A stretch of DNA of 64,000 nt from positions 49,253 to 113,252 of the forward strand of contig BPJZ01000008.1 in NCBI GenBank assembly GCA_026004875.1, read 5' to 3'. Numbering within the stretch: position 1 is the stretch's first letter; every line of letters begins with the position of its first letter. The notes under the pieces are model-generated. The model was not told the origin of the DNA. It saw only the letters and a program-made list of their open reading frames with translations, and ran no database searches. The stretch is from Candidatus Poribacteria bacterium. GTDB taxonomy: Bacteria > Poribacteria > WGA-4E > GCA-2687025. The translations under genes were made by a program, and so were the position numbers. This document shows, piece by piece, positions 4,948 through 62,892 of this stretch.

Positions 4948-5241
4948 ATGTGGCAGGACGTAGCCGCTCTGGGAACGGTTGGCCTCACGGCAGGATGGTT
5001 TCTCTACCGTTTCGTCCGGCGCCGTCGCTCCGGGAGGCCCGCGACGCTCTGCGACGGGTGCAGCGCGGCCTCCTCGCGGGTGCCAAAGTCGGCGCCAACC
5101 TATCTGATCCCCACCGAGACGCTGGAGCTGTTCGGCAAGCAGCAAGAGGCTAGTGGGACTCCTCCTCGCTCCGGAGCTGCCCCCATGTTGTCGCCTTCAG
5201 ACCCTCCGGCGAGACGGGAAGCGTCTCCAAAGGGCGGCTGA
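4948..5241 (+). CDS. FeoB-associated Cys-rich small membrane protein (3' end uncertain)
   Basis: Lies immediately after feoB. One TM helix (AALGTVGLTAGWFLYRFV), then RRRR and CDGC. The tail overlaps the convergent gene by about 90 nt, so the true stop may be earlier or shifted. Confidence 0.5.
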   Translation: MWQDVAALGTVGLTAGWFLYRFVRRRRSGRPATLCDGCSAASSRVPKSAPTYLIPTETLELFGKQQEASGTPPRSGAAPMLSPSDPPARREASPKGG

Positions 5242-6025
5242 GCGAAGCGGCAACGATCTTCCACGCTCCCGCTCGGCGCTCCAGTTGAAGGGAGACTCGA
5301 CGGTCCTCAAGGCGCTGATAGGCAATTGCTCGCCGGCTGGGAGGTGAGACGAGCAGCCGCATGGCATCCGCGTTCAACGCCTCGGGAATCGGTGTGAAGG
5401 CCATCTGCACTAGTGCCCCCGGCCCGACCCACTCGCGTCCTAGGTCGTCTACGAATAGAAAGCTCTCCGCCTCCAACAGTGGCTGAAGCGCAGCGTGGTC
5501 CCCTGCGTCCAACGCAATCGCCGCGGCGGTCATCGTCTCGATCGGCTCCAAGAGTTGCCCATAGGCTGGACGTGGGTCAAAACCGGCGGGCGGCAGATCC
5601 AGCGTTCCACCGTCCAGGTCGGCGACCAGCACCTCCCATCCGTCGGCCCCCCAAGTGAGCCGAGCGACGCAGGTGCCCTCCTCCCCGTCCTCCCCGAGCT
5701 CCCAGTCGAAAAACAGCCATATCTCCGGGGCGTTCAGCACGACGGCGGGGCGGACGAGTCGCATCGGTGCCCCACCCTCGAACCGGTCGGCAAGCAGCCC
5801 GCCGATCTCTTCCCGGCCGTTGCGAACTCCGGCCCTCTCGTAAAGCTGCCCCTCCGGAACGAAGAGCTTCGCGAAGCCCTCCCGATCCCCCCGACGGATC
5901 GCTTCGGCCATCTGCTCCGCGACCTGAACGGCGGCCTCCCCCCGCTCGAAAATCGCGTCGGCAGAGGCTCTCCCCGAAACCCCTAACCCCAATATCGTCA
6001 CCAACCAAACGGCCAATTTTTGCAA
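5150..6025 (-). CDS. Secreted hypothetical protein, possibly tandem NTF2/SnoaL-like folds, with a C-terminal GLKATTWGQLRS tail
   Basis: Likely TTG start at 6025, 6 nt after AAGGAG, giving signal peptide (M)QKLAVWLVTILGLGVSGRASA. Ends VSPEGLKATTWGQLRSEEESH. Confidence 0.6.
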   Translation of the reverse strand: MQKLAVWLVTILGLGVSGRASADAIFERGEAAVQVAEQMAEAIRRGDREGFAKLFVPEGQLYERAGVRNGREEIGGLLADRFEGGAPMRLVRPAVVLNAPEIWLFFDWELGEDGEEGTCVARLTWGADGWEVLVADLDGGTLDLPPAGFDPRPAYGQLLEPIETMTAAAIALDAGDHAALQPLLEAESFLFVDDLGREWVGPGALVQMAFTPIPEALNADAMRLLVSPPSRRAIAYQRLEDRRVSLQLERRAGAWKIVAASLSRPLETLPVSPEGLKATTWGQLRSEEESH

Positions 6026-6119
6026 CGATTGCTCCTTTTTCCTCCCCACGGACCGTTCCCCCAGCTCTCAAGGACTACTATTCTCAGAGAAGGAGAAAAC
6101 GATTCGAAAGGCGCCTGCG

Positions 6120-6458
6120 ATGACGGAAAAGATTCCCCCAAGGCGGGTTCAGGTGGATCGCGATCGGGCGGTCACAATCACTTGGAAGGACGGAACGACC
6201 AGCGTTTACCCGATCGCTTATCTTCGGCAGCATTGCCCCTGCGCCACCTGTCAGGAGCAGCGGGAGGAGGCTACCAACCCGCTTCGTGTCCTGCCTTCGG
6301 GCACCCCTGTCCCCGAGGAGCTCACCATCGCTCACGTCGAGCCGGTCGGACATTACGCGCTCCGCTTTCGGTTCTCCGATGGCCATGCAGGAGGGATCTA
6401 CTCTTGGGAGTACCTCTTGAAGATCGCTCCGCCGACGGAAGGGGAGTCCTCCTCATAA
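6120..6458 (+). CDS. DUF971 family protein
   Basis: VTITWKDGTTSVYPIAYLRQHCPCATC...GHYALRFRFSDGHAGGIYSWEYL matches the DUF971 pattern (gamma-butyrobetaine hydroxylase N-terminal-like). Confidence 0.8.
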   Translation: MTEKIPPRRVQVDRDRAVTITWKDGTTSVYPIAYLRQHCPCATCQEQREEATNPLRVLPSGTPVPEELTIAHVEPVGHYALRFRFSDGHAGGIYSWEYLLKIAPPTEGESSS

Positions 6459-6465
6459 AAGAAGC

Positions 6466-6494
6466 GGCGCAGGAGCTATCTCCAACCCTGCGCC
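6466..6494. terminator. Hairpin between convergent genes (possible bidirectional terminator)
   Basis: GGCGCAGG (6466-6473) pairs with CCTGCGCC (6487-6494). Followed by GTTTCTCTT on the plus strand and by a T-rich stretch on the minus strand. Confidence 0.5.
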
Positions 6495-6525
6495 GTTTCT
6501 CTTCCTGGTGTCAAGCCGTCCTGTG

Positions 6526-7143
6526 TTAGCGCTTCAGCTGGGCCCAGGTGGTGGCCAGCTTGCCCGCCGGATCGACGGCTTGGGGTTGCTCCTGACCCCA
6601 CTCCTCATAGGGGATGTACTCCCCTTCGTACCAGCGGACTTCGTCCATCCAGAGCGTCGCTGCGTTGAACGCGACGTGGAGCGTCAGCGACGCCGGGACG
6701 ACATCGGCGGGCGTCTGCCAGGTGGTCCAGAACTCCTGATACTCGTCGGTGACGTCCACCTGCTTTTCGCCGTAGCCGGTCCACGGGTCGACGGCCAACT
6801 CCGGTTTGATGTTGATCCGGACCGGCGGGTCCGCCTTCATGAAGAAGGCCCAGGTGTACTGAACGCCGCCCTCAAAGAAGATGTTCTCACCGGCGCCCTT
6901 GTACTGAACACCGGAGTCCCAGAAGTTGACGCCGGCTGCGGCCACCTCGATCTTGAGCGCCTCACTTCCCGCAAAGGCGTCCTGCTTGTCGGCCATGCTC
7001 AGCACCGCCTGGCCGTAAGCGGTCCAAGGAGCTACTACCCCGTCTTCAAATCCCCAGTTGGGGATCAGGTTCTCCGGCGTTTCCGCCGCGTAGGCAGCAG
7101 CCACTAACCCCAGAGCGAGAATTGATCCGATCAACCCTTTCAT
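6526..7143 (-). CDS. Secreted CBM4_9-like carbohydrate-binding-module protein, paralog 1, with C-terminal GKLATTWAQLKR tail
   Basis: AGGAGG RBS. Signal peptide MKGLIGSILALGLVAAAYA. NLIPNWGFEDG...NFWDSGVQY...YTWAFFMKAD is typical of CBM4_9-type jelly rolls. Confidence 0.8.
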   Translation of the reverse strand: MKGLIGSILALGLVAAAYAAETPENLIPNWGFEDGVVAPWTAYGQAVLSMADKQDAFAGSEALKIEVAAAGVNFWDSGVQYKGAGENIFFEGGVQYTWAFFMKADPPVRINIKPELAVDPWTGYGEKQVDVTDEYQEFWTTWQTPADVVPASLTLHVAFNAATLWMDEVRWYEGEYIPYEEWGQEQPQAVDPAGKLATTWAQLKR

Positions 7144-7309
7144 CGAACGTGCCTCCTTTGGCGTTATTTCCCTTAGTTAGAGATAGCCCTCATAGCTGAC
7201 CTGAATATTACCCGCGAGTAAACAATTTATAAACCAATCGGGTCGAAGCTGTACAGGGATGCGGGCCCCAATTGTACCGTACGTTTGGGGCCCGTATCCT
7301 AGCGAACTC

Positions 7310-7894
7310 TTAGCGCTTCAGCTGGGCCCAGGTGGTGGCCAGCTTGCCTTTGGGATCCACCGCCGTGACCGATTCGTAGGGAACGTACTCTCCGACGTAC
7401 CAGCGAGCGGCATCGATCCAGAGCGTCGCCGCGTCAAAGGCCACGTGAAGCGTTAGCGAAGCGGGCTGAACCAGGGTGTCCGGCGTCCAGGTGGCATAGA
7501 ACTCCTGCCAATCGGTGGTCAACTCGACCTGGTGCTCGCCGTACCCCGTCCAGGGGTCCTGAGCCAGCTCCGGCTTGATATTGATGTTCACGGTGTGGTC
7601 GGCCTTAGCGAAGAAGGCCCAGGTGTAGGTCGTCCCTGCCTCGAAGACGACCCCCTCTTGGTACTGAACGCCGGAGTCCCAGAAGTTGGCCCCAGCTGCG
7701 GGCACCTCCACCTGGAGGGCGAAGCTACCTTCGTAGACGTTGTCGCTGGTCACCGAGAGCGTCGCCTGCCCGTAGGAGATCCACGGGTCCACGACGCCGT
7801 CTTCCAAGCCACCGTTTCGGAGCATATTCTCCTGTGCCAGCGCCATCGAGCCGCTTAGCGCCAGCGCCGCAACGACTGCAATCCACCGTCTCAT
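7310..7894 (-). CDS. Secreted CBM4_9-like protein, paralog 2, with C-terminal GKLATTWAQLKR tail
   Basis: Signal peptide MRRWIAVVAALALSGSMALA. Same conserved blocks as paralog 1. Confidence 0.8.
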   Translation of the reverse strand: MRRWIAVVAALALSGSMALAQENMLRNGGLEDGVVDPWISYGQATLSVTSDNVYEGSFALQVEVPAAGANFWDSGVQYQEGVVFEAGTTYTWAFFAKADHTVNINIKPELAQDPWTGYGEHQVELTTDWQEFYATWTPDTLVQPASLTLHVAFDAATLWIDAARWYVGEYVPYESVTAVDPKGKLATTWAQLKR

Positions 7895-7946
7895 GAGTCC
7901 GCGTTCCTCCTTTCGAACGGTTTACCTTGTGGTAGGCCTTCAGGGG

Positions 7947-8573
7947 CTACCGACCCTTCAACGCACCCCAGGTGACGGTCAGCTTCCCAACAGGATTGAC
8001 CGCCTGGGGAACCTCTCCAATCCACTCCTCGTAGGGGATGTATTCCCCTTCATACCAGCGCGGCGCGTCCATCCAGAGTGTCGCCGCGTCAAAGGCCACG
8101 TGAAGCGTTAGCTGCGCTGGGATTACGTCCTGGGGCGTCTGCCAGGTGGTCCAGAACTCCTGATACTCCTCGGTCACGAGCACCTGCCTTTCGCCGTAGC
8201 CGGTCCACGGGTCCTGAGCCAACTCCGGCTTAATGTTGACGTTGACCGGGTGATCCGCCTTCATGAAGAAGGCCCAGGTATAGGTCACCCCCTGCTCGAA
8301 GACCAGCGGCTGACCGGCGCCCCGATACTGGACGCCGGAGTCCCAGAAGTTGACTCCTGCCGCCGCGACGGTGATCTGTAGTGCCTCGGTCCCCTCGTAC
8401 GCGTCGTTTCGATTGGCCATCGCAAAGGCCACCTGGCCGTAAAACACCCAGGGGTCGGGAACACCGTCCTCAAAGCCTTCGTTAGGGATCAGGTTGGGCA
8501 TCTCGTCGCGGGGGGCGGCCCAGGCGGCAAGCGCCACTACGCAGGCAAGCACGAAAAATATTCTCTGACGCAA
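7947..8573 (-). CDS. Secreted CBM4_9-like protein, paralog 3, with C-terminal GKLTVTWGALKGR tail
   Basis: TTG at 8573 lies 6 nt after AAGGAGAG and gives (M)RQRIFFVLACVVALAAWA. The longer ORF reaching 8699 is probably upstream read-through. Confidence 0.75.
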   Translation of the reverse strand: MRQRIFFVLACVVALAAWAAPRDEMPNLIPNEGFEDGVPDPWVFYGQVAFAMANRNDAYEGTEALQITVAAAGVNFWDSGVQYRGAGQPLVFEQGVTYTWAFFMKADHPVNVNIKPELAQDPWTGYGERQVLVTEEYQEFWTTWQTPQDVIPAQLTLHVAFDAATLWMDAPRWYEGEYIPYEEWIGEVPQAVNPVGKLTVTWGALKGR

Positions 8574-10368: not shown

Positions 10369-10935
10369 CTAGCCGCCCGAGGTCCCGTGGTTCCAAAAGC
10401 GCCAGGCCAGAAGGACGAGCCGAGTTCCAATCCCCAGCGAGGCAAGAGTGATCGCGGTCCATGCGGATCGCGACCGCCGACGAGACGGCTCCAAGCGCAA
10501 CTGGGCCACCCCTGCCGTCAGAGCAAGCAGCGAGAGGATCAGCCCGACCGACGAGAAGACCGAAAGCGCCGCGCTTAACAGCGCAAAGCCGGTCAGAAAA
10601 TTGGCCGACTCCGCGGTCTCCGCGTACAGCTCCAGGAGAGGATCGGGGCGGCGGTTCCCTCTTCGCTCACCGCGCAACGCTTCCAGGAGCTGGTACACGC
10701 GCATCCGGGGCTTGGGCCGAATCTCCGAAGGGGAGCTCCCCCGGCTTCCCAGCCCAAACAGCCGTTCTTCGCCGGGGAACATCGGCAGAAGCGTTTCTTC
10801 CGTCAGCCGAATGGTGGGCGCCGCGGCGATCCGAAACGACTCAGAGCCCTTCCGCTCCGGCTTCTGGTCTTGAGAACGGGCCTGTTCCGAACCCTCTCCT
10901 GAACCCGCTCGGAAACTCGGCTCTGAACCCGTCAT
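10369..10935 (-). CDS. Hypothetical membrane protein
   Basis: Charged N-terminal region followed by hydrophobic helices (FLTGFALLSAALSVFSSVGLILSLLALTAGV and TAITLASLGIGTRLVLLAW). Confidence 0.45.
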   Translation of the reverse strand: MTGSEPSFRAGSGEGSEQARSQDQKPERKGSESFRIAAAPTIRLTEETLLPMFPGEERLFGLGSRGSSPSEIRPKPRMRVYQLLEALRGERRGNRRPDPLLELYAETAESANFLTGFALLSAALSVFSSVGLILSLLALTAGVAQLRLEPSRRRSRSAWTAITLASLGIGTRLVLLAWRFWNHGTSGG

Positions 10936-11204
10936 CCTTGCTCCCTAGCGATTCCGTCCCAGCAACCAAGCAACGGTACTTCACGATACCACATTCCCCA
11001 AGGCCGGTCAAGAACCGGCTTGTGAACCTTGGTTTGGTCCGCCGGGGGAGAGCCTTTCGACCCGCTGGCCCAGATCAAGGCGGAGCGAACGCCTTTCCCC
11101 AGTTGCGCGCTCGAGTCCGTTCGCCTACACTGATCTACAATAAGGGGGGGAGAGACAGGGGTCCAAATCGTTTGAGCGAGGGAGTGTGCGAAGGGTACGC
11201 CGTC

Positions 11205-12488
11205 ATGAGGGTATGGATGCGCTACGGCCGACAGGGGCTAGAGGTCGAGTTCCCGGACGATCGGACCACGGTGGTCCGGATGAAGCCCAGCCGCCCTCTC
11301 CCGGATCCACAGGGGGCCGTCTGGGACGCCCTGCAGCACCCCATCGGGACGCCGTCCCTCTCTCGTCTGGCACAAGGCCGAAGGGACGCCTGTGTGGTGA
11401 TCTCCGACATCACCCGACCGGTTCCCAACCGCCTGATCCTTCCCCCCATTCTCCAGACGCTGGAGGAGGCCGGCATCCCCAGGGAGCGAATCCTGATCCT
11501 GATCGCCACCGGAATCCATCGCCCCAACGAGGGGGAGGAGCTGATCGAGCTAGTCGGCGAGGAGATCGCCTCGCAGTACCGGATCGAGAACCATTACTCT
11601 GGCGACCTTTCCAGTCATAAAGACCTCGGTCCCACCTCAAAGGGCACACCGGTCCTAATCGATGCCCGTTATTGCGAGGCGGACCTGAAGATCACCACAG
11701 CCCTGATCGAGCCTCACTTGATGGCCGGATACTCCGGCGGCAGAAAGGCGATCTGTCCTGGCCTGGCCTCGATCGAGACGATGAAGATCATGCACGGGCC
11801 GGGAATTTTGGAGCATCCCCGTTCGGCACCGGGTATTCTGGACGGAAACCCCTTCCATGAAGAGGCGCTAGAGATCGCCCGAATGGCCGGCTGTGATTTC
11901 TGCCTGAACGTGGCCCTGGACGATCAGCGCCGGTTGATCGGCGTCTTTGCCGGAGAGATCGATCTGGCCCATCGAGCCGGATGCGCCTTTGTCGGCGAAC
12001 GAGTCACCGTCCCGGTTGAACCCGCGGAGATCGTCGTGACGACCAGCGCCGGCTATCCGCTGGATCGCTCCTTCTACCAAGCGATCAAAGGCCCCGTCGG
12101 AGCGTTGGAGGCGGTCCGACCCGGCGGGAGCATCCTCCTCCTAGCCGAGTGCTGCGAAGGGGTAGGAAGCCCTCCCTTTGAAAAGCTCGTCCGAGAGACC
12201 CCAAGCCTCGAGCAGTTCGTTCAGGATCTCTATCGCCCCGAGAAGTTCGTCGTGGATCAGTGGCAGCTTGAGGAGTTGGCCAAAGTGGCGCGTAAAGCCT
12301 CCGTGTATATGTACTCAGAAGGAATCGACCCGGAGGTGATGAAGGAGCTCTTCGTAACCCCCGTGGAGAGCCCAGAGGCGGGAATTCAACAGTTGCTGGA
12401 ACTGCACGGCCCCGACGCTCGAATTATCGCAATTCCGGAGGGCCCTTATGTGATCCCCGTGGCCGTTGAAGCGGAGCAGTCGGCATGA
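11205..12488 (+). CDS. larA: LarA-like nickel-dependent lactate racemase family protein (DUF2088)
   Basis: VVISDITRPVPN...LIATGIHRPNEGEE...LMAGYSGGRKAICPG resembles LarA. The real start is at 11205, since the long upstream ORF is low-complexity. No larB, larC or larE in the window. Confidence 0.8.
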   Translation: MRVWMRYGRQGLEVEFPDDRTTVVRMKPSRPLPDPQGAVWDALQHPIGTPSLSRLAQGRRDACVVISDITRPVPNRLILPPILQTLEEAGIPRERILILIATGIHRPNEGEELIELVGEEIASQYRIENHYSGDLSSHKDLGPTSKGTPVLIDARYCEADLKITTALIEPHLMAGYSGGRKAICPGLASIETMKIMHGPGILEHPRSAPGILDGNPFHEEALEIARMAGCDFCLNVALDDQRRLIGVFAGEIDLAHRAGCAFVGERVTVPVEPAEIVVTTSAGYPLDRSFYQAIKGPVGALEAVRPGGSILLLAECCEGVGSPPFEKLVRETPSLEQFVQDLYRPEKFVVDQWQLEELAKVARKASVYMYSEGIDPEVMKELFVTPVESPEAGIQQLLELHGPDARIIAIPEGPYVIPVAVEAEQSA

Positions 12489-13174
12489 GACAAAAGGAAC
12501 CGATCCTCGTGCGGGGCTATCGGAACGGGCTTTATGTCACCGTAGACGACTCCGTTCCGACCGAGGAGCTGGCCGATCGGATCGTCTCCCGACTGGCGCG
12601 TTTGGGCTCCTTTGTGAAAGGGGCGCCGCTCGTCCTGGAGGTGGGACAGCGATCGCTCAACGACGAAGAGCTCCGGCAGATTCAAAAGCAGCTGGACCGA
12701 CAGTATGGCCTGCGAATCGTTCAGCTGGTGAGCGGTTCGGACGCGACACGAAGCGCCGCGGAGATTCTCCGCATTCGAGCAGTGCCGACCCTGTTTGATC
12801 ATCGTGTCGAGGAACCGCCAGCGCTCCGCGCGCGGGAGCCGAACACGATCACCATCCGACACACTCTCCGAGCGGGCGCTTCAGAGCAGTTTCTCCAGGG
12901 AAGTATCCTCGTCTTGGGGGACGTGAACCCCGGCGCAGAGCTGGTCGCTTCTGGGGACATCATCGTTCTGGGGACACTGCGCGGGGTCGTTCACGCCGGC
13001 GCGCTTGGGGATGAGGGGGCCGTTGTCATTGCGCTGCGACTTTTAGCTACGCAGATCCGGATCGCCGGCCACATCGCCCGCTCCCCCGAAGGGGAGCGGG
13101 AGGCCCGCCCGTACCCGGAGATCGCTTTGGTCGAAAAGGAACAGATTGTCGTCCGAAGGTTCGAGGGCTTCTAA
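12485..13174 (+). CDS. minC: Septum site-determining protein MinC
   Basis: C-terminal beta-helix ILVLGDVNPGAELVASGDIIVLGTLRGVVHAGA...ATQIRIAG. The start overlaps the larA stop (ATGA). Confidence 0.9.
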   Translation: MRQKEPILVRGYRNGLYVTVDDSVPTEELADRIVSRLARLGSFVKGAPLVLEVGQRSLNDEELRQIQKQLDRQYGLRIVQLVSGSDATRSAAEILRIRAVPTLFDHRVEEPPALRAREPNTITIRHTLRAGASEQFLQGSILVLGDVNPGAELVASGDIIVLGTLRGVVHAGALGDEGAVVIALRLLATQIRIAGHIARSPEGEREARPYPEIALVEKEQIVVRRFEGF

Positions 13175-13197
13175 CCGGTTCACCAAGGAGAAGGGGG

Positions 13198-13992
13198 ATG
13201 GGACGCCCGATCGTCATTACTTCTGGAAAGGGTGGGGTCGGAAAGACCACCACCGCCGCAAACCTGGGAACGGCCCTGGCGCTGCTGGGTCAAAAGGTGG
13301 TCGTCGTGGATGCGGACATCGGTCTCCGCAACCTGGACGTGGTGATGGGGCTAGAAAGCCGCGTCGTCTTCACCTCCATGGACGTCATCGAGGGAAAGTG
13401 CGACCTGAACAAGGCCCTGATCCGCGACAAGCGTGCGGAAAACCTCTACATCCTGGCCGCCGCCCAAAGCCGCAACAAGAGCGACGTCCAGCCCGAACAG
13501 ATGGCCCGACTGGTCAAAGAGCTGGAACAGCAGTTTGACTTTGTCCTGATCGACTGCCCGGCGGGAATCGAGCAGGGCTTTGACAACGCCGTCGCCGGCG
13601 CCCAAGAGGCGATCGTCGTGGTCACCCCAGAGGTCTCCTCGATCCGAGACGCCGACCGGGTGATCGGACTGCTCCAAGCCAAAGGCCTGACCGAGCCTCG
13701 GTACATCCTGAACCGGTACTCCCCTCGACTCGTAGAACAGGGGGAGATGCTCGACCGTTCGGACGTGCAGGAGATCCTCGCTATTCCGCTTTTGGGGATC
13801 ATCCCGGAGGATCAGACGATCATCGCCTCAACCAACCGCGGCAAGCCGTTGGTCCTGGAGGCCAGCACGCCGGCGGGAGCGGCCTACGTTCGCATCGCCC
13901 GCCGGCTCCTGGGCGAGGAAATTCCGATCCCGGAATTCCGCGAGGAGACCGGATGGAGCCGCTTTTTCCGAATGCTCTTTGGGCGCGGTTGA
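13198..13992 (+). CDS. minD: Septum site-determining ATPase MinD
   Basis: Deviant Walker A ITSGKGGVGKTTTAANLG, with VVVVDADIGLRNLD. 264 aa. Confidence 0.95.
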   Translation: MGRPIVITSGKGGVGKTTTAANLGTALALLGQKVVVVDADIGLRNLDVVMGLESRVVFTSMDVIEGKCDLNKALIRDKRAENLYILAAAQSRNKSDVQPEQMARLVKELEQQFDFVLIDCPAGIEQGFDNAVAGAQEAIVVVTPEVSSIRDADRVIGLLQAKGLTEPRYILNRYSPRLVEQGEMLDRSDVQEILAIPLLGIIPEDQTIIASTNRGKPLVLEASTPAGAAYVRIARRLLGEEIPIPEFREETGWSRFFRMLFGRG

Positions 13993-31290: not shown

Positions 31291-33803
<2,513 letters not shown>

Positions 33804-62121: not shown

Positions 62122-62892
62122 ATGGTTCGATGGGTTGTGATCTTCGGGATGACTGTGGCGCTGAGCGCCTATGCTGTCAGCATCGGGGATGGTCTGGAAG
62201 GCCTCTGGCTCTTTGACGAGGGGTCGGGAGACATTGCTCGAGACTCCTCCGGCAACGGACGCGACGGGGAAATCCTGGGCAATCCGGCCTGGGTGGATGG
62301 AGTCTTTGGCATGGCCTTGGAGTTCGACGGTGTAGACGATCACGTCGTGATCTCCGGTTATACCGGGGTAGGGGGCAACACGCCTCGGACCGTGATGCTC
62401 TGGTGGAAGGCGTACGACGCGCGCGAGCACTCCTGGGTCAAGTGGGGAATCGTTCAGGACACCCGGAAGTACTACGTCCGCGCGCACCTTGCGGGAAACA
62501 CGTGCTTCCTGCGTGTTGAGACGCAAGGCGGCCAGCACTACGGCAGCACAGACGTTTGCAACGGTGAGTGGCACCATCTTGCCGTTGTCTTTCCTCCCGA
62601 CTCGGACAACGTCAAGGATCATCTCCTTTATGTGGACGGAGTCCTTGAGGAGCAGACGGCGGGCAACCCCGTCGGTGTGGACACCGACGTTGCGAGCCAA
62701 GAGGTGAACATCGGCGCGCCGTTGGCGCATCACGTCTACGCCCACGGGGTGATGGACGAGGTGGCCATCTACAGCCGTGCGCTCAGCAAGGAGGAGATTC
62801 AAACGATCATGAACAACGGATTTCGGTTGAGCCTGGCCGTCTCGCCGGCGGGGAAGCTCGCAACCCGCTGGGCCGCCCTGAAGCAGCAGTAG
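62122..62892 (+). CDS. Secreted LamG (concanavalin A-like lectin) domain protein with C-terminal GKLATRWAALKQQ tail
   Basis: ATG at 62122 after GAGGAGG. Signal peptide MVRWVVIFGMTVALSAYA. LWLFDEGSG...DSSGNGRDGE...ALEFDGVDDHV...GEWHHLAVVF...MDEVAIYSRALSKEEI is a classic LamG_3 pattern. Confidence 0.85.
   Translation: MVRWVVIFGMTVALSAYAVSIGDGLEGLWLFDEGSGDIARDSSGNGRDGEILGNPAWVDGVFGMALEFDGVDDHVVISGYTGVGGNTPRTVMLWWKAYDAREHSWVKWGIVQDTRKYYVRAHLAGNTCFLRVETQGGQHYGSTDVCNGEWHHLAVVFPPDSDNVKDHLLYVDGVLEEQTAGNPVGVDTDVASQEVNIGAPLAHHVYAHGVMDEVAIYSRALSKEEIQTIMNNGFRLSLAVSPAGKLATRWAALKQQ

Follow-up and report, generated by a model that had tools for sequence, protein, structure and literature searches.

A short modular C-terminal tail on exported proteins of unrelated folds in Candidatus Poribacteria

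The window analysed here is a 64 kb stretch of DNA from a Candidatus Poribacteria bacterium (contig BPJZ01000008.1). Five of its approximately 60 genes encode proteins that end in the same short peptide, V-x-P-x-G-K-L-A-T-T-W-[GA]-x-L-K, and the carriers differ in fold: one is SnoaL-like, three contain a CBM_4_9 domain and one contains a Laminin_G_3 (LamG) domain. This shared ending is genuine and goes far beyond chance; the data support an unrecognised modular C-terminal tag that is shared by unrelated secreted folds. Poribacteria, which are uncultured, rank among the dominant symbionts of marine sponges, and the tail may bear on the way in which their adhesin-like and lectin-like proteins are presented to the host matrix.

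The tagged genes of the window

Four of the five genes are neighbours on the reverse strand. The SnoaL-like gene (5150..6049, -) encodes a protein of 299 residues that ends in ...LPVSPEGLKATTWGQLRSEEESH. Its tail, LPVSPEGLKATTWGQLR, occupies 5171..5221 (-) and is followed by SEEESH and the stop codon; the core motif matches at 5171-5209 and the residues upstream of it were read from the open reading frame (ORF). The three CBM_4_9 genes follow. The product of 6526..7143 (-), with 205 residues and a Pfam CBM_4_9 match at E 2.1e-8, ends in ...AVDPAGKLATTWAQLKR, and its tail AVDPAGKLATTWAQLK at 6532..6579 (-) precedes a single R and the stop. That of 7310..7894 (-; 194 residues, E 2.2e-17) ends in ...AVDPKGKLATTWAQLKR, with the tail AVDPKGKLATTWAQLK at 7316..7363 (-), again followed by R and the stop. 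That of 7947..8573 (-; 208 residues, E 5.6e-12) ends in ...AVNPVGKLTVTWGALKGR, with the tail AVNPVGKLTVTWGALK at 7956..8003 (-) and a trailing GR before the stop. The start of this last gene was taken from the database protein P0004 (208 residues) and agrees with the coordinate 8573 of the preliminary description, the longest ORF extending to 8699. The LamG gene lies far from the others at 62122..62892 (+) and encodes 256 residues (Pfam Laminin_G_3, E 4.2e-16) that end in ...AVSPAGKLATRWAALKQQ; its tail AVSPAGKLATRWAALK is found at 62836..62883 (+) and is followed by QQ and the stop. The tails were read from the ORFs and the core motif, and those of 7310..7894 and 62122..62892 belong to proteins that were also modelled with AlphaFold2 (AF2).

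The core motif was written as a regular expression of 13 residues, P.[GDN].[LK].[TVAS][TRVSK]W[GAS].[LIVM][KR], and was searched in all six frames. It has five sites in the entire 64 kb window, each 1-6 residues ahead of a stop codon, and there is not a single match in the window beyond these five gene ends. The preliminary description had claimed that the four neighbouring genes share a C-terminal tail, that a fifth copy lies near 62845-62892, that the motif sits at or within six residues of the C-terminus and that all carriers have N-terminal signal peptides. The ORFs and the regular expression bear out the first three of these statements, the fifth copy belonging to the LamG gene, and a Sec-type signal peptide is predicted on five of the five window carriers by a hydrophobic-stretch heuristic. 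The same description had assigned differing passengers to the tail. The CBM_4_9 assignment stands (E 2e-8 to 2e-17), whereas that of the SnoaL-like protein rests on DUF4440 and SnoaL_2 matches with E ~4e-4, which are below the Pfam gathering score.

The three CBM_4_9 genes are tandem paralogues with 59-62% identity and thus count as one lineage, not as independent instances of the tail. The other two carriers, the SnoaL-like and the LamG gene, are independent. The tail of the SnoaL-like protein is the most divergent: G-L-K replaces G-K-L and R replaces the final K, so that both lysines are substituted (G-L-K-A-T-T-W-G-Q-L-R), and its SEEESH trailer is acidic and longer. These residues may mark it as a form of the tag that is decaying or has a distinct function.

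The tail is conserved as protein and lies outside the fold

In a DNA alignment of the five 3' regions, synonymous sites vary inside the tail and similarity ceases beyond the stop codons. The tail is therefore conserved at the protein level.

The boundary between domain and tail is clear in the CBM_4_9 homologues. Their alignment shows the domain closing at W-x-D-x-V-R-W-Y-E-G-x-Y, then a linker of 5-12 residues that is rich in insertions and deletions, and then the tail. The Pfam domain matches in the window carriers likewise stop short of it. Two AF2 models agree with this boundary. The model of the CBM_4_9 protein 7310-7894, calculated from an alignment of 30 sequences, has a mean predicted local distance difference test score (pLDDT) of 84; the last strand of its jelly roll spans residues 156-167, and residues 168-194, which comprise the linker and the tail, have pLDDT values of 50-70. 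The model of the LamG protein 62122-62892 (120 sequences) has a mean pLDDT of 91, with the domain extending to about residue 238 and the tail residues 240-256 at pLDDT 54-56. In both models the values inside the domain exceed 90, and the tail is a low-confidence helix over K-L-A-T-T-W-x-x-L-K that is detached from the domain. A Foldseek search with the LamG model returned lectin-like jelly rolls, for example arabinanase domain 4, the lectin-like N-terminal part of neurotoxin binding domains and the lectin domains of sialidases.

Confident packing of the tail into the β-sheet, as expected of a terminal strand of the CBM_4_9 or LamG jelly roll, is absent from the two AF2 models. The tail is apparently unstructured and situated outside the domain, as far as can be judged from the models. 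Thus the claim that it is not the final strand of one shared fold holds for both folds modelled and is in line with the many Pfam families that carry it.

Extent and conservation of the motif

The pattern K-L-[AT]-T-T-W-[GA]-x-[LIVMF]-K was back-translated and used to scan the genomes of 185,579 species, one genome each. It was found in at least 120 loci; the figures given from here on refer to the loci listed. The distance to the stop codon is 1-12 residues, with a mode of 3, in 135 of 136 matches.

Counted from the first conserved lysine as position 0, Val at -5, which was free in the search pattern, is conserved in 98% of the tails. Other positions were equally unconstrained and are nevertheless conserved: [APS] at -6, [EDS] at -4, [PA] at -3 and [GD] at -1. 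With these positions the module reaches about 17 residues, more than the pattern with which it was found. Its consensus is [LTF]-[APS]-V-[EDS]-[PA]-x-[GD]-K-L-[AT]-T-T-W-[GA]-x-[LIVM]-K. In nearly all tails the final conserved K is followed by a trailer of 1-6 residues that are polar or basic, with many R, Q, S and K among them. Looser cores, such as AATW, AVRW, ATNW and TSTW, occur in the CBM and LamG families, and the substitutions tolerated reduce the invariant core to V(-5), K(0), W(5), [GA](6), [LIVM](8) and K(9). A cluster of 14 PD40/TolB-like proteins that includes L047:521-1567 has a looser tail, ...FAVSPAGKGTTLWGRLKQLIH, which escapes the strict pattern; the carriers are thus more numerous than the strict-pattern count.

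The tail had been described as a short amphipathic strand, and neither part of this statement withstood analysis. The helical hydrophobic moment is 0.30, compared to 0.26 +- 0.13 for shuffled tails, and the strand moment is 0.28 compared to 0.26; AF2 gives a low-confidence helix and no evidence of a strand. The mean hydrophobicity of the tail is -0.04. A moment no higher than that of shuffled tails favours specific recognition of the sequence over general physical chemistry.

Carriers and export

Pfam matches in 109 complete carriers comprise 58 Laminin_G_3, seven 3keto-disac_hyd, six CBM9_1, five CBM_4_9 and three F5_F8_type_C domains; DUF3108-like, HmuY, LTD, PD40, Ank, DPPIV_N and Polysacc_lyase families are also represented. 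Most carriers are single-domain proteins of 220-300 residues, and a few range from 620 to more than 1390 residues. TafC matches are frequent among them, but these are due to the LamG domain of TafC, an archaeal fimbrial adhesin, and do not involve the tail.

Carriers are strongly enriched in exported proteins. The signal-peptide heuristic is positive for 131 of 143 tagged ORFs (92%) and for 170 of 622 untagged ORFs (27%) from the same loci, an odds ratio of 29 (p 7e-48). In the window, the untagged proteins that have a signal peptide are of classical envelope types: a TlpA-like thioredoxin, two TPR proteins and a lipoprotein. This set is weak evidence, consistent with the tag marking another destination.

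The number of carriers can be estimated only roughly. At least about 24 further tagged ORFs are found among approximately 700 ORFs that neighbour selected matches. Taken together with the density of tags in the window, this suggests, as a rough inference, tens to more than 100 carriers per genome. A profile of the tail only, in which the tail is duplicated in each alignment row, returns short fragments and says nothing on full-length carriers; it gave 172 matches at E<=10, of which the best 120 are short fragments ending in the tail, with upstream pieces from LamG, Kelch, CBM4_9, 3-keto-disaccharide-hydrolase-like and rhodanese-like domains. A larger figure, 7198 proteins at E<=0.001 in a representative library (profile A7), was discarded as a count of tails. 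That profile included the end of the LamG domain, and its top matches are giant multi-LamG proteins aligned to profile positions 17-45, outside the tail.

Distribution

Nearly all of the 80 records listed in the genome scan are Candidatus Poribacteria from sponges, long-read environmental assemblies and a single-cell genome. Outside these there are a few records with no title other than 'uncultured bacterium', together with one 'Pseudomonadota' bin from a sponge and one Synechococcus. The match in Synechococcus is 45 residues from the stop codon and lacks the flanking motif, and it was rejected as a chance match. On the strength of nearly all the listed records, the tail appears to be specific to the phylum Poribacteria. 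The CBM_4_9 homologues have a similar distribution: the named tail carriers are Candidatus Poribacteria, with P0001-P0027 all tagged, and three Planctomycetota-like homologues are untagged, one running into other sequence, one stopping at the domain and one being truncated.

The 'Pseudomonadota' record, L062 (JAPPIL010000222.1, 'Pseudomonadota bacterium RHO2_bin_21'), is a sponge-derived contig with two tagged genes of 364 and 341 residues that have no Pfam match. It is probably a mis-binned Poribacteria contig. If so, the tag is usable as a taxonomic marker.

Three viral contigs from IMG/VR (L122, L124 and L126; GC content 31-35%) carry a gene whose LamG-like product has a hydrophobic N-terminal segment and the tail ...VEPKLKLTTTWGEVKK. 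In L122 (IMGVR_UViG_3300021791_000527) the gene is located at 12770-13696 (+). This contig also encodes a T4-like DNA polymerase, sliding clamp, clamp loader, UvsX and DnaB-like helicase (PHROGs, E <1e-60), and these replication genes indicate that a real phage encodes the tagged protein. Its presence suggests that phages exploit a tag-reading system of the host.

Comparison with known C-terminal signals

No Pfam/NCBIfam (release 20) model touches the tail in the five window proteins (E<=1), in the 109 carriers or in seven large carriers, and this extends to the curated sorting-signal models of NCBIfam. The statement that the tail belongs to no described family thus agrees with the databases as well as with the open-access literature discussed below. 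Two other early statements are also correct: the tail is not followed by a hydrophobic helix, and it is much shorter than the C-terminal domain (CTD) recognised by a type IX secretion system (T9SS).

The signals read by LPXTG/sortase, PEP-CTERM/exosortase, GlyGly-CTERM/rhombosortase and PGF-CTERM/archaeosortase, and the MYXO-CTERM signal, resemble the tail in that a short C-terminal signature motif is attached to signal-peptide proteins, has many paralogues per genome and is restricted to a lineage. However, these signals are tripartite and continue with a hydrophobic transmembrane helix and a basic cluster, whereas only 1-12 polar or basic residues follow the Poribacteria motif and the hydrophobicity is about zero. 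The lack of a membrane helix makes a membrane-embedded sorting enzyme unlikely.

One LamG homologue, P0265 (L121:667-1491), is 47% identical to the LamG protein of the window over the alignment and ends in IPEPECFLLFSIVLLFSLIRFRNK in place of the tail. By eye this end looks PEP-CTERM-like; NCBIfam gave it no score. If it is truly a PEP-CTERM, the slot can hold a recognised sorting signal. Were that reading correct, the slot would be swappable, as the untagged Planctomycetota-labelled homologues also suggest. The contig of P0265 (2.3 kb) contains rubrerythrin and desulfoferrodoxin genes in addition.

The T9SS substrates share with the tagged proteins a Sec signal peptide, found on the tag carriers by the heuristic, a C-terminal signal on many unrelated passengers, a phylum-level lineage and a many-to-one logic. 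Their CTD (TIGR04183, type A/type B) is nevertheless a folded, immunoglobulin-like domain of 70-100 residues, and the Poribacteria tail is, according to AF2, an unstructured peptide of about 17 residues. NCBIfam gave no match to TIGR04183 in the five window, 109 and seven large carriers, and the two AF2 models end in an unstructured stretch of about 17-25 residues. TIGR04183-like domains were reported in Poribacteria single-cell genomes, in which the structural genes of the T9SS were not found and the route of secretion was left open (Kamke et al. 2014, PMC3909097).

The β-signal of outer-membrane proteins requires an aromatic residue at the extreme C-terminus. F or W is last in only 13 of 133 tails, which mostly end in R, Q or K, and the passengers are soluble lectin-like folds, unlike the β-barrels that bear the β-signal. 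Two further systems offer partial analogies. The curli protein CsgA, exported by Sec, is directed to its outer-membrane channel by a signal of 22 residues, and in cellulosomes the dockerin, a small appended module, docks many enzymes onto one scaffold. The CsgA signal differs from the tail in being N-terminal and in serving one or two substrates. Dockerins differ in being folded, calcium-binding modules of about 70 residues. No homologue of CsgG or of cohesin came up, although no search was directed at them.

A profile search of the Protein Data Bank with the tail gave chance-level matches only, including a propeller repeat with AINPNGKL and entry 8dj2 (E 0.07). In the latter, residues 7-16 of chain A ('Adhesin') read VSPKGKLATT, an exact match of ten residues to the first half of the tail that is probably due to chance. 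The sequence V-[SE]-P-x-G-K-L is similar to the strand-turn-strand in the blades of PD40/YVTN propellers, and one idea, put forward as such, is that the tail might dock as a hairpin by strand addition.

The tail is best filed as a C-terminal signal of the sorting or docking type that has neither a membrane helix nor a folded domain and is unlike the described classes. It would add a new class, a short peptide, to the catalogue of prokaryotic C-terminal sorting signals.

Proposed function

The reading favoured here, with moderate confidence, is that a conserved partner in the envelope reads the tail as a modular peptide for sorting or docking. Specific residues are kept across many paralogues and the whole phylum, which would point to one conserved protein as the reader. 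Moreover, the carriers are exported lectin-like binders, whereas ordinary periplasmic proteins are untagged; such a reader would most likely route its clients across the outer membrane or retain them on the envelope or cell surface.

The proposed pathway has four steps. The protein would be exported by Sec and its signal peptide cleaved, a step visible as sequence features only. The tail would then stay unstructured and exposed, in keeping with the AF2 models. A single conserved envelope component would bind it, serving many clients. Finally, this component would pass the protein across the outer membrane or hold it on the envelope or cell surface.

Several points weigh against this proposal. 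A search for the partner or its machinery by gene neighbourhood, in which the ORFs of 120 loci from the genome scan were clustered, found none, and there is no constant companion gene either in these loci or in the 20-kb context around one tagged LamG gene. Signal peptides were called throughout by one crude heuristic and not by a trained predictor. The low AF2 confidence fits disorder, yet it would equally arise from the absence of the partner in the model. Furthermore, the literature was covered in open-access full text only; no description of the tail was found there, either by motif strings or by combining Poribacteria with sorting, PEP-CTERM, T9SS, encapsulin or LamG.

The untagged genes that recur next to tagged ones encode Gfo/Idh/MocA, PhyH, ECF sigma factors, TPR, WD40, DUF6785 and FG-GAP/UnbV_ASPIC proteins, and synteny explains most of these associations. 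The FG-GAP/UnbV_ASPIC protein is a secreted propeller of about 550 residues, often preceded by a TPR protein. It adjoins three tagged families in the same direction in 10 loci that represent about four independent contexts (recorded at L032, L037, L050, L070, L071, L074, L093, L103 and L120, e.g. L070:1074-2675). No other cassette adjoins three different tagged families, and the other contexts lack it. Its role may be that of a functional cassette or of a candidate partner of the tag; the adjacency could also reflect a shared function of the passengers rather than recognition of the tag.

A more specific proposal can be made only tentatively. The tail might be the address label of a new envelope pathway found only in Poribacteria, in which a helix-free signal of about 17 residues is recognised by a periplasmic receptor or translocon that exports or displays the lectin-like repertoire, and which T4-like phages have captured so as to set a LamG protein of their own on the host. 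If this is true, it would answer the question raised in 2014 of how surface proteins are secreted without a T9SS. A phylum-wide tag also makes it possible to predict the surface proteome or secretome from sequence and to trace the cognate machinery by phylogenetic profiling, and it can reveal mis-binned contigs and links between phages and hosts.

Alternative roles of the tail

A covalent attachment site is an unlikely alternative to a docking peptide. A periplasmic or outer-membrane transpeptidase would link a conserved lysine, or a new C-terminus near V-E-P, to peptidoglycan or a glycolipid, by analogy with the linkage of the lysine of Braun lipoprotein to meso-diaminopimelate or with the PorU-mediated attachment to anionic lipopolysaccharide. 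Two near-invariant lysines bracket the motif, the V-[ED]-P upstream is a possible cleavage site, the trailing residues are rich in R, K and Q, and the anchor of P0265, PEP-CTERM-like by eye, occupies the same place. Braun lipoprotein, however, has lysine as its very last residue, and K ends only 19 of 133 tails. Clustering of neighbours linked no transpeptidase to the tagged genes of the listed loci.

Direct binding to membrane lipid or lipopolysaccharide is less probable still. The Trp and flanking Lys residues would bind the lipid surface without a protein partner, as do the C-terminal amphipathic helices of PBP5 and MinD. These residues are typical of interfaces, and AF2 predicts a short helix over K-L-A-T-T-W-x-x-L-K, but its pLDDT is only ~50-56, the hydrophobicity is near zero and the helical and strand moments are the same as for shuffled tails. 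Conservation is also very high at single positions, including V at -5 and [GA] after W, which is unlike lipid-binding helices.

It is very unlikely that the tail acts within its own protein or in its turnover, either as an autoinhibitory peptide that occupies the binding site of the passenger or as a degron for a periplasmic C-terminal protease. The tail is flexible, C-terminal and attached by a short linker, and PDZ proteases do read C-terminal peptides. One invariant peptide, however, would hardly fit the sites of LamG, CBM, PD40, ankyrin and HmuY proteins alike; the extreme C-terminal residues are variable, unlike those of carboxylate-anchored PDZ ligands; and it is hard to see why a degron should be kept on so many paralogues throughout the phylum.

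A cargo-loading peptide for a shell, such as an encapsulin or microcompartment, is highly improbable despite a similar format: a flexible linker, about 10 conserved residues, few trailing residues and a position at the extreme C-terminus. Encapsulin targeting peptides have the form ...LTVGSLK..., which the tail echoes in x-T-[hydrophobic]-G-x-L-K. Known shell cargo is cytosolic and lacks a signal peptide, whereas 92% of the tag carriers have one, and the carriers are lectin-like binders and not typical cargo enzymes. No shell gene is present among the approximately 30 annotated ORFs of the window or among the recurrent neighbours of the listed loci, and no paper tying encapsulins to Poribacteria was found in open-access text.

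Three of the four neighbouring genes are indeed tandem paralogues, but an artefact, whether a DNA repeat (a mobile element or terminator at the 3' ends) or the closing strand of a single common fold, is refuted by the DNA alignment, the spread over many Pfam families and the AF2 models, which exclude the tail from two folds.

Other genes of the window

The tagged genes are surrounded by housekeeping genes, which encode FeoB, MinCD, an RseP-like protease, Dxr, Frr, Tsf, RpsB, SecD and ExbB. At 31291-32679 there is a radical SAM/SPASM protein with a C-terminal SEC-C motif, an ORF that nothing in the present data ties to the tag. The LarA-like ORF at 10461-12488, with Lar_N and LarA_C domains, begins with approximately 250 residues that are rich in Pro, Ser and Arg and have no domain match; its true start is probably near residue 250, the long ORF being a likely over-call in GC-rich DNA. 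The GC content of the window is 62.7% and the closest matches of its proteins are to Poribacteria, with 53-77% identity. The window probably derives from a distinct high-GC lineage within the phylum.

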